Assembly: GCA_964523875.1 (NCBI GenBank)
Contig: CAZGAS010000003.1
Location: forward strand, 1-45,410
DNA length: 45,410 bases
DNA from: an uncultured Planctomycetia bacterium
GTDB lineage: Bacteria > Omnitrophota > Gorgyraeia > JABMRG01
Reading direction: 5' to 3'
Part shown: one piece after another, positions 26,676 to 32,396 of the stretch
Position numbering within the stretch: the stretch's first letter is position 1
Layout: the number at the start of each line of letters is the position of its first letter
The notes under the pieces: model-generated
Told to the model about the DNA's origin: nothing
The model's input: only the letters and a program-made list of their open reading frames with translations
Database searches by the model: none
Position numbers and translations under genes: made by a program

Positions 26676-27029
26676 ATGTTAAGGATAATTTATAAATCCA
26701 AGATTCACAACGCGACAGTAACAGACGCTAACCTGGATTATTCAGGAAGTATTACAATAGATTCAGAATTGTTAAAGATCGCGGATATATTTCCCGGTGA
26801 GAAGGTCCAGGTTGTGAACCTTAATAATGGTACAAGGATCGAGACATATGTTATCGAAGGAGACGCTGGCAAAGGAACTATCTGCATGAACGGTGGTGCT
26901 GCCAGATGCGCGCAAAGGGGAGACAAACTAATTATAATATCCTATTGTCTGGTTGAGTCCAAGGAGGTGTCTACTTTTAACGCGAAGAGGGTGTTTCTTA
27001 ATGACAAAAATGGAGTAAAGAAATTATGA
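26676..27029 (+). CDS. panD: Aspartate 1-decarboxylase proenzyme
   Basis: KSKIHNATVT, YSG|SITID pyruvoyl cleavage site, ETY, NGGAAR; start ATG 26676 after AAGGAG. Confidence 0.95.
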   Translation: MLRIIYKSKIHNATVTDANLDYSGSITIDSELLKIADIFPGEKVQVVNLNNGTRIETYVIEGDAGKGTICMNGGAARCAQRGDKLIIISYCLVESKEVSTFNAKRVFLNDKNGVKKL

Positions 27030-28003
27030 TGGAAAAATATACAGAAGCGACTAATAGGCAGTATATAGAGAAGTTAAAAACCCGCATTGTTGAACTTAAG
27101 AAAAAGCGCAACGCTGTTATAATAGTTCATAATTACCAGAGAGATGAAATTCAGGAGATAGCTGATATTACAGGCGACTCCCTGGGGCTGAGCAAGGCAG
27201 CTATTAATATAAGGGCGGATGTTATTGTTTTTTGCGGGGTCCATTTTATGGCAGAGACAGCTTATATATTAAATCCAAAAAAGACGGTGCTGCTTCCGGT
27301 AAAAGAGGCCGGATGCCCTATGGCAGATATGATTACGCCTGAAGCGTTAAGAAAAAAGAAAAAGGAATATCCCGGTGTGCCCGTTGTATGCTATGTCAAT
27401 ACCGCCGCTGCGATTAAGGCAGAGAGCGATATATGCTGTACTTCGCGTAATGCCGTTGAGGTGGTAAACTCTCTTCGGGAGAAGAGAGTAATGCTTATCC
27501 CTGATAAAAATCTTGGTTCTTATGTCCAATCACAGTTGCCTGAAAAAGAGATAATATTATGGGAAGGGTTTTGCCCTACCCATATAAGGGTTTTGCCTGA
27601 CCAGATTTTAGAAACTAAAAATTTACATCCTGACGCGGAATTTATAGCTCATCCTGAATGTAATCCTGATATTCTTGCTCTGGCGGATAAGATTACATCA
27701 ACAGGCGGTATGCTTGAACATATAAAGAACTCAAAGAGGAGAGATTTTATTATCGGAACAGAGATGGGCATGTTGTACAGGCTAAGGCAAGATAATCCTG
27801 ATAAGAGGTTTTTTCTGCCTACAGATCATCTCTTATGCGCGAGTATGAAACTTACGACTCTTGGGTGGATAGTTAACTCGCTTGAGCTTATGGTTTACAA
27901 AATATCTGTTCCTGAAAATATAAGGATACGTGCGTACAAATCAGTGGAGAGAATGCTTGCTATCTCCGGTGAAAAGAAATGGGTATCTGTATCGGGTAAC
28001 TAG
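27026..28003 (+). CDS. nadA: Quinolinate synthase
   Basis: HNYQ, GDSL, CGVHFMAE, AGCPMA, YVNT, CPTH, HPEC, C.SMK. Confidence 0.96.
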   Translation: MMEKYTEATNRQYIEKLKTRIVELKKKRNAVIIVHNYQRDEIQEIADITGDSLGLSKAAINIRADVIVFCGVHFMAETAYILNPKKTVLLPVKEAGCPMADMITPEALRKKKKEYPGVPVVCYVNTAAAIKAESDICCTSRNAVEVVNSLREKRVMLIPDKNLGSYVQSQLPEKEIILWEGFCPTHIRVLPDQILETKNLHPDAEFIAHPECNPDILALADKITSTGGMLEHIKNSKRRDFIIGTEMGMLYRLRQDNPDKRFFLPTDHLLCASMKLTTLGWIVNSLELMVYKISVPENIRIRAYKSVERMLAISGEKKWVSVSGN

Positions 28004-28045
28004 AGAGATAAGCTTGGAAACAGTTTCAAGCACTAATGAGGGATT

Positions 28046-28861
28046 ATGTTAAAAAAAATAGGCATAGTAGGTTGTGGCACTATAGGTAGTTTTATCGCGA
28101 AAGCTGTGGATAATGAATTAAAATCTTTCGCGAAGATTGCCGGACTCTGTGATATAGATAACGAACGCGCTGTGGATCTTTGTAAAACGCTTTCACAAAA
28201 ACCACCGATAGTTTCAATTAGCAGGCTTATTGATAGCTCAGATATTGTAGTGGAGGCAGCATCAGGCAGGGCATCTTTTGATTTGACAAGGGAAGTTCTT
28301 TTGAATAAGAAAGATGTTTTGGTAATGAGCATTGGCGGGCTGCTTGGAAAGAGTGAGGAGTTGTTTGCGATAGCGAGAAAGAATAGAGCAAAGATAATTC
28401 TTCCCAGCGGCGCGATATGTGGATTAGATGGTATAAAATCCGCTGGTATAGGTTCAGTGACGAAGGTTACTCTTACAACACGAAAGCCTCCAAAGGGCCT
28501 TAGAGGTGCCCCTTATATAATTGAGAATGGGATAGACCTTGACGCTATAACCAATGAGTATGTTATATTTGAAGGTACCGCGCAGAAAGCGGTCCAGGCT
28601 TTTCCTAAGAACATTAATGTTTCCGCGCTCTTGTCCATCGCGGGTATAGGTGCGGAAAAAACAATAGTAAAGATTGTTACTTCCCCCGAGTATACAGTTA
28701 ACGTGCATGAGGTTGAAGTGGAAGGAGATTTTGGAAAGCTCCTTACCCGCACAGAGAATGTTCCTTCACCACAAAATCCAAAGACGAGTTTTTTGGCGCC
28801 GCTTTCCGCGGTATCCGCTTTAAGGCAATACCTTGATGATTCTGTCAAGATTGGTGCCTGA
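28046..28861 (+). CDS. nadX: L-aspartate dehydrogenase
   Basis: GIVGCGTIG, VVEAAS, PSGAICGLD, TRKPP, FPKNINV, NVHE, NPKTS; follows nadA. Confidence 0.92.
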   Translation: MLKKIGIVGCGTIGSFIAKAVDNELKSFAKIAGLCDIDNERAVDLCKTLSQKPPIVSISRLIDSSDIVVEAASGRASFDLTREVLLNKKDVLVMSIGGLLGKSEELFAIARKNRAKIILPSGAICGLDGIKSAGIGSVTKVTLTTRKPPKGLRGAPYIIENGIDLDAITNEYVIFEGTAQKAVQAFPKNINVSALLSIAGIGAEKTIVKIVTSPEYTVNVHEVEVEGDFGKLLTRTENVPSPQNPKTSFLAPLSAVSALRQYLDDSVKIGA

Positions 28862-28956
28862 GTCCGTGTGATACAAAATTCATTAAGAACTGTAAATACC
28901 CGGAGAGAATTTTAAAAATATTTTTTAAAATATTTTCTTAAAAAAGAAAAAAGTTC

Positions 28957-28985
28957 TTGCACCCCTCTTAAAAAAAGCGTAAAAT
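28957..28985 (+). promoter_or_regulatory. Sigma70 promoter with upstream A/T tracts, for the lysine-rich gene pair
   Basis: TTGCAC, 17-nt spacer, TAAAAT; very AT-rich 28908-28952; strong SD GGGAGGTG before ATG 29027. Confidence 0.65.
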
Positions 28986-29026
28986 AAAATTAATAAAATA
29001 TTTCTGAAGGGAGGTGAAAATATAAA

Positions 29027-29350
29027 ATGGCAACAAAAGTATTAAAATGTAAAATTAAAAGAGAAAAAGGTTTTCTTTATTATTTGGATAAAAAAGGAAA
29101 TGTTTCAAAGGCAACGATGGCTCGTGGTAAGAAGAAAGGCGGCAGCCCTAAGGTTGTTGTTAAAGCAGGTATTATTAGGGAAAAGGGGTATCTTTATTTT
29201 ATAGATAAGCAGGGTGATGTTGCAAAGGCAACGATGGCACGTGGTAAGAAAAAGAAGAAGGTCGCCAAGAAGAAGGTAGTAAAGAAAAAGGTAGCAAAGA
29301 AAAAAGCCAAGAAGAAGGTAACGAAGAAGAAAGCCAAGAAGAAGAAATAG
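29027..29350 (+). CDS. Highly basic protein: two tandem 39-aa repeats plus an H1-like KKKVA tail; putative nucleoid-associated protein
   Basis: REKGFLYYLDKKGNVSKATMARGKKK and REKGYLYFIDKQGDVAKATMARGKKK repeats; poly-Lys tail; strong SD. Confidence 0.8.
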   Translation: MATKVLKCKIKREKGFLYYLDKKGNVSKATMARGKKKGGSPKVVVKAGIIREKGYLYFIDKQGDVAKATMARGKKKKKVAKKKVVKKKVAKKKAKKKVTKKKAKKKK

Positions 29351-29390
29351 CATATAACGGCTAAACCTTTTACTAAAAAAGGAGGGAAAC

Positions 29391-29474
29391 ATGGCAGCAA
29401 AGAAAAAGGCAAAGAAAAAGGTAGCGAAGAAAAAGGTAGCGAAGAAAAAGGTAGCAAAGAAAAAGAAGAAATAA
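29391..29474 (+). CDS. 27-aa lysine-rich microprotein MAAKKKAKKKVAKKKVAKKKVAKKKKK (not in the ORF track)
   Basis: SD GGAGG 5 nt before ATG 29391; TAA at 29472-29474; same VAKKK unit as the tail of the upstream gene. Confidence 0.72.
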   Translation: MAAKKKAKKKVAKKKVAKKKVAKKKKK

Positions 29475-29500
29475 GTATTAATATATATAAAGTAATCTGA

Positions 29501-29561
29501 AACAGACAGCCCCTTTTAGCAGAATGCTTAAAAAGCTTATTGCGAGAAGGGGCTTCCTGTT
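29501..29561 (+). terminator. Long hairpin after the lysine-rich pair (probable terminator or RNA stabiliser)
   Basis: AACAG..AGCCCCTTTTAGCA / TGCGAGAAGGGGCT..CTGTT; U-tract weak. Confidence 0.6.
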
Positions 29562-29573
29562 ATGTAAATAAAT

Positions 29574-32396
29574 ATGAATAATAAATACATTACAATAAAA
29601 GGCGCAAGAGAGCATAACCTGAAATCTATCAATCTGAAGCTTCCGCGTAATGAACTTACGGTAATTACCGGTTTGTCAGGTTCGGGAAAGTCTTCACTTG
29701 CCTTTGATACTATATACGCTGAAGGCCAGCGTAAATATGTTGAGAGTCTTTCCGCGTACGCGCGTCAATTTTTAGAACAGATGCAGAAACCAGATGTTGA
29801 CCATATAGAAGGACTTTCGCCGAGCATAGCTATACAGCAGAGAAGGGCTGGTTCAAACCCCCGCTCTACAGTTGCGACTGTTACCGAGATACATGATTAT
29901 TTAAGGTTGCTTTTTTCAAGAATAGGCAATATCTATTGCTATAAGTGCTCTAAATTAATAACCCACCAGTCCGCGCAGCAGATTATAGACAAGATAAACC
30001 AGTACATTATTAATACGCCTGTTGTAATATTAGCGCCGGTTATACGTGGTAAAAAGGGTGAGCACAACGATCTTTTCAATAATATAAAAAAGAACGGGTT
30101 TATACGCTGCAGGATAGACGGGAAAATATATGACCTTGCTGAAGATATTAAGCTCAATAAAAACAAAAAACATAATATCGAGGTTGTGGTAGATAGATTA
30201 GTGATAAAGCCTAGCACGCGTAAACGCCTAGCTGATTCTATTGAAACCGCTTTAGGCCTTGGCAGTGGATTAATTATTGTCTCTATACAGCCTCTTGCGC
30301 AGACAGAAAACCAAACACCTAAAACTGAAACACTATACAGCTCTCAAAATGCCTGTGTCGATTGCGGGATAAATTATGAGACACTTGAACCTCGCGTGTT
30401 TTCTTTTAACTCTCCATACGGGGCCTGCCCGGCTTGTAATGGATTAGGCCACAGTACGGAGATAGATCCCGATCTTGTTATACCGGATAAATCCAAATCC
30501 ATTAGAGGCGGCGCTATAGATCCATGGCGAAAAGGCGGAAAGTCTTTGCTTTTATATTATTATAAGCTTCTTAGCGGGTTTGCTGATGATTATCATCTTA
30601 GCCTTGATAAACCGTTTAAGGGCCTTAGTAAAAGAACGCAGGATATTGTTTTATATGGAAGCAGGGACAAGGCGAGAGAAGGGGTATATTTTGAAGGGGT
30701 TATCCCTAACCTGGAACGCCGTTTTAAAGAGACTGATAGTGAATATATGCGTAATGTTATCCATGAGTACATGTCAGTGCAGCCCTGCACTCGCTGTAAA
30801 GGCAGAAGGCTTAAGGAAGAGTCTCTGTCAGTAAAGATTGCACAAAAGAGTATCGCGGATATATGTAGTTTCTCCATAACTCAGGCCTTTGATTTTTTTA
30901 GTAACCTAAAGCTTAACGCCAAAAGTAAGCAGATAGCAAGGCAGATACTAAAAGAACTTAATAGCAGGCTCAAGTTTTTGTTAAATGTAGGCTTGGGTTA
31001 TCTTACCTTGGATCGTATCAGCTCTACGCTTTCAGGCGGGGAGGCGCAGCGCATCAGGCTTGCTACCCAGATAGGAGCCGGATTAGTAGGTGTTCTCTAT
31101 GTACTGGATGAGCCAAGTATAGGCCTTCACCAGAAGGATAATTCCAAGCTTCTTTCCACGCTTCAGGCCCTACGCGATATTGGTAATACTATTGTTGTTG
31201 TAGAGCATGATGAGGCTATGATAAGAAGCGCGGATTTTGTTGTGGATTTAGGCCCCGGTGCCGGCAAAGAAGGTGGAGAGTTGATATATAGCGGCCGCGT
31301 AAAAGGCCTTTTGAAGAACAAGGCTTCTCTGACCGCGAAGTATTTAAATGGTGGCCTGAGAGTAGCTCTGTCTGGTAATCCCAGAGATTACAAAAAAAGA
31401 AAAAAACTTGTTATCAAAGGGGCGAGCGAGCACAACTTAAAGGGGATTGACGTCTCTTTGCCCTTGGGTACATTTAATTGTGTAACAGGCGTGTCTGGTT
31501 CAGGAAAATCTACATTAGTAGATGAGATACTCTTCAGGGCGCTTGCGAAGAAATTCTATAATTCTACTCAAGCTCCGGGCAAGCATAAAAAAATATTCGG
31601 AAGTGAGCATATAGATAAAGTAATAGTTGTAGACCAGTCACCTATAGGACGCACGCCGCGTTCTAACCCCGCGACTTATACAGGCGCGTTTGGTTATATA
31701 AGAGAGCTATTTTGCAAGCTTCCTGAAGCGAAAATAAGAGGGTATAAAGCAGGCCGGTTCAGTTTTAATGTTAAAGGCGGCAGGTGTGAAATTTGTGAAG
31801 GGGACGGGGTAAAAAAGATAGAGATGCATTTTCTTCCTGATGTTTATATTCAATGTCAGGCTTGCAAGGGGAAGCGTTTTAATCATCAAACGCTTGAGGT
31901 CAAATACAAGGGCAAGTCCATATCAGATGTGCTTGAGATGGCTATTGATGATGCCCTGGAGTTGTTTGCTAATATCCCTCCTGTATATAAAAAGCTTAAG
32001 ACTCTCTCTGATGTTGGCTTAGGTTATATCGAACTCGGCCAATCCGCTACAACGCTTTCTGGTGGTGAAGCACAGAGAGTGAAACTTTCAACAGAGCTTT
32101 CAAAGCAAGCAACCGGCAGGACCCTCTATATTCTAGATGAGCCTACTACAGGGTTACATTTCGCGGATGTAAATAAGCTCTTATCAGTATTGAACAGGTT
32201 GGTTGTTCAAGGTAATACAGTACTGGTTATAGAACATAATCTTGATGTTATAAAATCCGCGGATTATATTGTAGATTTAGGCCCTGAAGGTGGGGAAAAA
32301 GGTGGTAATATAGTTGCCTCCGGTTCTCCTGCTGAGATTGCCAAAAATAGATATTCTCATACAGGACGTTACCTTAAGGGAGCATTTTCTTTTTGA
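29574..32396 (+). CDS. uvrA: Excinuclease ABC subunit A
   Basis: GAREHNLK, two Walker A motifs ([16 protein letters not shown]), two LSGGEAQR signatures, zinc-finger CxxC pairs. Confidence 0.98.

Follow-up and report, generated by a model that had tools for sequence, protein, structure and literature searches.

An oligolysine small open reading frame beside a conserved basic protein gene in one family of Omnitrophota

Two short genes and their surroundings

The window considered here, the whole analyzed stretch of 45,410 nucleotides from an uncultured bacterium of the Omnitrophota, includes a compact set of features centered on two short genes (Table 1). The upstream gene (gene 1) specifies a small basic protein with a lysine-rich tail, while the downstream small open reading frame (sORF) specifies a peptide in which 17 of 27 residues are lysine and none is arginine. 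Besides lysine, this peptide contains only alanine and valine; its net charge is approximately +17, and neither a hydrophobic core nor a signal peptide nor any cysteine is present. The initial annotation had reported a GGAGG Shine-Dalgarno (SD) sequence, an ATG at position 29391, 17 lysines among 27 residues, a TAA stop, and then a large hairpin, all of which are borne out in the sequence. The share of AAG among the lysine codons of the sORF, 11 of 17, is unremarkable beside a genome-wide value of 0.52. A candidate antisense frame of 87 codons (29194-29457, minus strand) was rejected as a Phe/Leu-rich shadow of the lysine codons that overlaps the strongly conserved gene 1.

Table 1. Positions, strands, and descriptions of the features at the locus
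Feature	Positions	Strand	Description
Conserved promoter-like element	28930..28985		A-tract, CTTGCR, 17 nt, GTAAAAT
Putative promoter of the two-gene operon	28957..28985	+	TTGCAC (28957-28962), 17-nt spacer, TAAAAT (28980-28985)
Gene 1	29027..29350	+	107-aa basic protein; two β repeats of ~35 aa and a 34-aa Lys-rich tail
15-bp (five-codon) repeat array encoding the gene 1 tail	29251..29331	+	Tandem Repeats Finder: 5.6 copies, 75% matches
SD of the sORF	29381..29385	+	GGAGG, 5 nt before the ATG
sORF	29391..29474	+	27-aa oligolysine microprotein MAAKKKAKKKVAKKKVAKKKVAKKKKK; from the ORF list and its translation; TAA at 29472-29474
15-bp repeat array within the sORF	29412..29465	+	KKKVA unit, consensus AAGAAAAAGGTAGCG; Tandem Repeats Finder: 3.6 copies, 97% matches
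GC-rich, terminator-like hairpin closing the operon	29502..29560	+	59 nt; weak U tail
uvrA (presumed), conserved downstream neighbor	29574..32396	+	940-aa ORF

The same 15-bp period runs through the gene 1 tail and the sORF, in keeping with the earlier proposal that the second is a free-standing copy of the first built from a 15-bp unit. Local alignment of the tail DNA with the sORF scores 44, compared with 32.2 ± 3.7 for codon-shuffled sORFs, of which 2 in 500 reach 44. Because the score exceeds that of the codon shuffles, the resemblance extends beyond shared composition, and construction of the sORF as a copy of the tail unit appears supported, though not overwhelmingly. Within the 1.41-Mb genome, the sORF is the sole repeat-built, Lys-rich small ORF; frames of 12-70 aa with at least 40% lysine number only five, the remainder being three TTG-initiated ORFs of 12-14 aa and, on contig C8, a polybasic ORF of 31 aa. 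Searches with the peptide returned no Pfam match at E ≤ 1 and no NCBIfam match, a 27-residue query having little power, and three longer peptides from relatives gave no Pfam match at E ≤ 10. By exact sequence, none of four peptides looked up, the present one included, is in a collection of 15 billion proteins, which says little because the exact gene 1 protein is equally missing there.

The signals around the two genes are those expected of a single transcription unit. An A-tract precedes the putative promoter, and in an alignment of 13 genomes from two families (f1, to which this genome belongs, and f2) the segments CTTGC and GTA.AAT show no variation, and the upstream A-run is kept. A simple consensus promoter scan did not list this element before gene 1, because its -35 hexamer matches the consensus at only three of six positions. 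At the other end, a 111-nt stretch around the hairpin folds at -30.4 kcal/mol (z = -4.9), with none of 200 shuffled sequences folding as well. A hairpin of the form GCCCCTTT...AAAGGGGC lies 3' of the sORF in all 10 of the sORF-bearing genomes, and the same hairpin directly follows gene 1 in three genomes devoid of the sORF (G007, G012, and G013). A terminator scan did not list the hairpin, and Rfam contains no family matching 28800-29700 at E ≤ 1. Gene 1 and the sORF are separated here by 40 nt and lie in different frames. Given this short gap, a conserved promoter before gene 1 only, and a hairpin after the sORF only, the two are very probably co-transcribed, as the initial annotation had claimed.

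Downstream lies an ORF that we take, from reading of the sequence by eye, to be uvrA; the uvrA N-terminus adjoins a gene of the gene 1 family in 21 of 34 loci examined, which come from several families. Its start is 14 nt past the hairpin, and no GGAGG-type ribosome-binding site is seen in 29561-29576. Two ordinary NAD biosynthesis genes lie directly upstream on the same strand (27026-28861): nadA, for a quinolinate synthase that matches Pfam NadA (E = 1e-119), and one for an aspartate dehydrogenase, which matches Asp_DH_C (E = 1.6e-32). Between them and the operon lies the AT-rich region of the promoter.

The gene 1 family, in which two repeats of the motif KREKGYLYY.DK.G.VS.A.MARG extend over about 80 residues and are followed by a basic C terminus, is both widespread and uncharacterized. 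All these features are found in the present protein. Relatives number 2134 at E ≤ 1e-3, every one of them labeled hypothetical; of the 301 Omnitrophota genomes sampled, 151 contain a member, and, judged by the source names of the homologues, which also place the window in the Omnitrophota, the family reaches other phyla. The protein is 64-88% identical to 43 aligned homologues, and 24 columns of the resulting 44-sequence alignment are invariant. An AlphaFold2 model computed with the alignment (pLDDT 88.6, pTM 0.60) predicts six strands arranged as two three-stranded units, then a helix for the tail at residues 74-106. Comparison of the sequence with those of the Protein Data Bank gave a best E value of 0.41, Foldseek found no PDB match to the model at E ≤ 0.001, and a wide structural comparison with VIA gave a best Z of 3.1, with none at 5 or above. 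The protein thus seems to have no detectable solved lookalike, which does not prove a new fold. Nor did it match histones, HU, Hc1/Hc2, or any Pfam or NCBIfam family, so that the label "histone-like," given to gene 1 in the initial annotation, reflects its composition alone.

Conservation and coding signature within one family

The sample of family f1 comprises 12 genomes, 11 of them readable past gene 1; in the remaining one (G010), the copy of gene 1 runs into the end of its contig, and a search of the rest of that genome with a less strict repeat pattern gave no match. In 10 of the 11 readable genomes, representing 6 of the 7 readable genera, gene 1 is followed by an SD sequence and an ATG-initiated oligolysine ORF whose last residues before the stop are KKKKK. 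The peptides of these genomes (G000, G001, G002, G003, G004, G005, G006, G008, G009, and G011) are 27, 34, 31, 30, 19, 29, 28, 29, 21, and 19 residues long, respectively, and repeat copy number differs even among species of one genus (27, 34, 31, and 30 residues). That these changes in length stay in frame is weak evidence of coding, as slippage in units of 3 or 15 nt preserves the frame without selection. The exception is G007, in which the terminator and then uvrA directly follow gene 1; gene 1 there keeps a 30-residue tail, and the sORF is therefore dispensable in that genome.

Initiation signals are retained along with the peptide termini. Of the 12 genomes, 8 contain a single instance each of GGAGG-N4-10-MAAKKKAKK, always at this locus, and a reversed version of the pattern, used as a control, gave no match. 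AAGGAGG is kept in the eight genomes with the MAAKKK form; in G005 and G006, the SD region instead reads GGGGG and GGAGGAGG, and the N termini are variants as well (MVKKKK and MAKKKKK). The gap between gene 1 and the sORF ranges from 40 to 48 nt across relatives and takes all three values modulo 3. Together with the different frames of the two genes in the present genome, this led us to reject a fusion to gene 1, by readthrough or frameshifting, as a source of the peptide: no fixed fusion of this kind is compatible with a gap that varies modulo 3, and the sORF must initiate on its own.

The alignment of the sORFs is unambiguous for the first nine codons and for the last five codons plus the stop in eight genomes. 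All nine variable sites in these aligned ends are third codon positions, none of the 30 first and second positions varies, and in the same eight genomes the 24 bases leading up to the ATG include 17 variable ones. Intergenic identity among the sORF-bearing relatives ranges from 0.48 to 0.85. The peptides of G004 and G011 are identical, with seven synonymous and no non-synonymous changes in 19 codons, where synonymous changes make up 19% of the possible single-base changes (44 of 234). Across all 45 genome pairs, 327 synonymous and 80 non-synonymous changes were counted, although the pairs are not independent and the alignment favors identity. Variation confined to third positions, combined with the retention of the SD, ATG, termini, and stop, points to purifying selection on the peptide. 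The sORF thus behaves like a real protein-coding gene, its translation being deduced from this signature, and the initial claim of a genuine ORF with an SD and ATG of its own is sustained by the comparison. The same relatives, checked for loss of the SD or ATG and for frameshifts, keep SD, start, frame, and stop in all but one of the readable genomes.

Outside family f1, the sORF was found at none of 105 readable gene 1 loci. It is absent from 8 of 8 readable loci in a first batch, from 13 of 13 at a further set of class-level loci (1 of 14 unreadable), from 27 of 27 at loci from metagenomes (7 of 34 unreadable), and from 57 of 57 at further phylum-level loci (3 of 60 unreadable). The phylum-level comparison accepted any ORF of at most 60 aa with K+R of at least 45%, on the same strand and within 400 nt upstream or 450 nt downstream. 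Judged from these loci, the sORF is an invention of this one family, as no Lys/Arg-rich small ORF lies beside gene 1 elsewhere.

What varies in the other lineages is the tail of gene 1 itself, which ranges from 4 to 102 lysine-rich residues at the phylum-level loci, with more long tails at the metagenome loci. Long tails occur, for example, at loci L239, L242, and L241, and single-repeat forms, which measure 40-66 residues and in several cases bear a long tail of the KKKVA type, at L163, L164, L258, L259, and L255-L257. Because of this range of tail lengths, the evolving quantity looks like a "polylysine dose," supplied as a tail or, in family f1, additionally as a free peptide. A decaying copy of gene 1 was observed as well: in G033, a degenerate, partial second copy lies ~170 nt past the intact gene (L018:1915-1986), its ORF ending ...ARGGKKKKKKR, with a stop-ridden match at G033:C38:20621-20845, from which it follows that tandem duplication and decay of the gene 1 family do occur.

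Look-alike sequences and known lysine-rich proteins

Oligolysine ORFs of similar appearance are by no means confined to the Omnitrophota. Scanning a single genome from each prokaryotic species with ATG-GCN-GCN-AAR-AAR-AAR-GCN-AAR-AA, encoding MAAKKKAKK, gave at least 120 loci (L029-L148), where about one match would be expected by chance at uniform base composition by our own estimate, and more in A-rich DNA. By their record titles, the matches listed span Acidobacteriota, Binatia, Nitrospirota, Alpha-, Beta-, and Gammaproteobacteria, Patescibacteria groups, Planctomycetota, and DPANN-type archaea. Among these listed matches, 103 of 120 ATGs open ORFs of 11-51 codons (median 21) with 59% lysine and 28% alanine; an SD-like tetramer lies at -18 to -4 in 67 of these 103 short ORFs, but in only 5 of them when a control position shifted upstream by another 40 nt is used. 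The present sORF has the features of this class, namely some 10-50 codons, nearly all for K, A, V, or T, and a ribosome-binding site of its own. Genes adjoining the listed ORFs differ between lineages, and such low-complexity sequence would fit shared descent or convergence alike. The top matches to the peptide in the ESM Atlas, scoring 0.95-0.97, are unnamed clusters of 30-39 residues; the recognition value of 1155 falls below the 2300 mark, making these weak leads.

Several of the individual cases have distinctive contexts. At six Patescibacteria-type loci (L035, L063, L088, L099, L103, and L108), an oligolysine sORF precedes, at a distance of 72-191 nt, a gene for a protein that starts with MS..K.FGD, which may be a SecA N-terminus; the sORFs of this type have A/T-rich leaders in place of an SD sequence. 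In the present genome (G000), the 31-aa polybasic ORF noted above is MPCGKKKKRTKMAKHKRNKRLRKMRHKKKKT, encoded with an SD at C8:2024-2119 (+). It has a sub-threshold Pfam match to COX24_C (E = 1.6; 9.1 bits against a cut-off of 23) and no NCBIfam match; we take COX24_C to be the family that holds the bS22-type ribosomal microproteins. In the full-text literature searched, which includes few subscription journals, neither genetically encoded oligolysine microproteins nor the gene 1 family turned up, and a paper on the small proteome (PMC10117765) likewise does not mention them under the terms tried.

The closest parallel among named proteins may be Hc2 (hctB; Pfam HC2, PF07382), a histone H1-like protein of chlamydiae, with Hc2-like proteins also in Bordetella and Burkholderia. 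Hc2 is reported to bind DNA, to consist of lysine-rich pentamers repeated a strain-dependent number of times, and to measure 165-237 residues with higher-order elements of 36 residues (PMC2848022). The sORF likewise has a five-residue unit, KKKVA, whose number varies between species, but its product is a free-standing peptide of 19-34 residues with one short array, encoded as the second cistron behind a folded partner protein. The HC2 profile matched neither the peptide, nor the three longer relatives, nor anything in the whole genome at E ≤ 1. The nearest named cluster in the ESM Atlas (score 0.84) has HC2 on 20% of its members, a lead only. By analogy, the sORF product may be a lysine-pentamer, nucleic-acid-binding kind of protein reduced to a free peptide and encoded beside its partner.

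Other comparisons illustrate the same combination of likeness and difference. Lysine-rich C-terminal tails form a class that includes the H1 C-terminal domain, AlgP, and the tail of mycobacterial HupB; these share the K, A, and V composition and a presumed role in charge neutralization, and the sORF mirrors the tail of its own partner, but theirs are fused to a folded domain while the sORF is a separate product. The tiny polybasic ribosomal proteins bS22 and bL37 are of the same size class (~20-35 residues), extremely basic, and frequently omitted from annotation; the sORF differs in having neither Arg nor His, in its pure repeat and variable length, and in its restriction to one family, and neither its peptide nor those of the relatives matched the Pfam or NCBIfam profiles of bS22/COX24_C and bL37. 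Eukaryotic protamines are arginine-rich. The sORF peptide is, like them, a short polycation that could neutralize DNA charge, but it has no arginine, and there is no sign of a developmental condensation stage; "protamine-like," as the initial annotation described it, thus holds for composition alone. For gene 1, a functional likeness to small, very basic, all-β chromatin proteins of the Sul7d/Cren7 type would be speculation only, since the structural searches described above returned no match.

Possible function and alternative explanations

On balance, we lean toward reading the sORF as the translated second cistron of a strongly promoted operon, whose product would diffuse as a polycation and attach to nucleic acid through its charge, with DNA the likeliest target. 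From the promoter, the operon would proceed through gene 1, with its two repeats and lysine tail, a 40-nt gap carrying an SD sequence, and the 27-aa peptide to the hairpin. The peptide, as a free-standing copy of the KKKVA tail of its partner, would provide polylysine in trans beside the gene 1 protein and act on nucleic acid through its charge, an end that other lineages may reach by a longer gene 1 tail. A nucleic-acid-binding polycation, with DNA as its likeliest target, is suggested by the match between the peptide and the tail of its partner, by the position of the operon before uvrA, and by the parallel with Hc2; it is the conservation of the operon directly before uvrA that makes DNA the more likely target. 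The genome carries an ordinary HU gene, so there is no gap in nucleoid proteins to be filled, and the results would also fit rRNA or other RNA, polyphosphate, or the membrane as the target. Any compaction, including the chromatin condensation proposed in the initial annotation, is, like the binding of nucleic acid and like co-transcription and translation, a reading of the sequence.

The most substantial competing explanation places the peptide on the ribosome or another RNA instead of in the nucleoid, as this lineage's own polybasic equivalent of the bS22- and bL37-type proteins that fill grooves in rRNA. Tiny, very basic peptides with strong SD sequences typify such ribosomal proteins, the strong promoter and the conservation of gene 1 over its 43 homologues would suit a ribosome-linked pair, and the second polybasic sORF on contig C8, with its sub-threshold COX24_C match, indicates that this organism does encode such peptides. 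Known members of that type, however, mix Arg, Lys, and His at a fixed length, whereas the sORF is a pure K/A/V pentamer repeat; a length that varies from 19 to 34 residues in close relatives, and outright absence from G007, would be unexpected of a structural component of the ribosome. With no profile match and with uvrA rather than translation genes as its neighbor, this explanation is rather unlikely, if still a serious one. Less likely again is that the sORF is a by-product of repeat duplication without function, in which a piece of tail-coding DNA was copied downstream, carries a start by chance, and is perhaps translated with little cost or benefit. The unstable 15-bp unit shared with the gene 1 tail, the shifts in copy number within one genus, the restriction to one family with loss or lack of gain in G007, and the degenerate partial copy that lies downstream of an intact gene in G033 all speak for such an origin. 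Against it stand the retention of SD, ATG, MAAKKKAKK, C-terminal KKKKK, and stop across six genera amid diverging intergenic DNA and the confinement of variable sites in the aligned ends to third positions, and it is judged improbable.

Two further explanations were considered. As a regulatory upstream ORF or leader peptide, its translation through lysine codons could control the hairpin and hence read-through into uvrA; a short ORF rich in one residue, followed by a hairpin and, 14 nt on, by a gene, fits this in outline. The hairpin, however, begins 28 nt past the stop, out of reach of a terminating ribosome, the fold is a single hairpin in which no alternative anti-terminator pairing is seen, and the sequence of hairpin then uvrA persists without the sORF in G007, G012, and G013. 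Since, moreover, uvrA is unconnected to lysine supply, the peptide sequence is conserved beyond its codons alone, and no Rfam element was found, attenuation is very improbable. Still more doubtful, to the point of being barely credible, is the idea of a secreted cationic peptide, antimicrobial or cell-penetrating, aimed at other cells, for which the high positive charge can be cited along with a proposed host dependence of some Omnitrophota. The peptide lacks a signal peptide and any face that is hydrophobic or amphipathic, its neighbors include no gene for transport, immunity, or modification, and it is paired with a basic protein of cytoplasmic appearance.

A broader and more tentative extension can be entertained. 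It is possible, though we would not call it probable, that Omnitrophota of this family also make the polylysine "tail" as a separate, independently translated peptide that serves as a bacterial analogue in trans of protamines or of linker-histone tails, and that this peptide is one member of a pan-prokaryotic, almost entirely unannotated class of genetically encoded oligolysines acting as tunable macromolecular counter-ions for the nucleoid or for RNA and partly replacing polyamines.

Polylysine peptides of 20-30 residues escape gene finders and trypsin-based proteomics alike, and a whole class of abundant polycations could therefore be missing from bacterial inventories. The case described here is unusually clean, with an SD sequence of its own, variation at third positions only, and conservation in six genera. 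It also has an obvious partner in a very conserved, structurally unmatched basic protein that is found in half of the sampled Omnitrophota. Gene 1 and the sORF thus form a testable pair for the organization or protection of DNA in uncultivated bacteria with small genomes, one that allows the question of whether tail length, as opposed to free peptide, tunes the dose of polycation.
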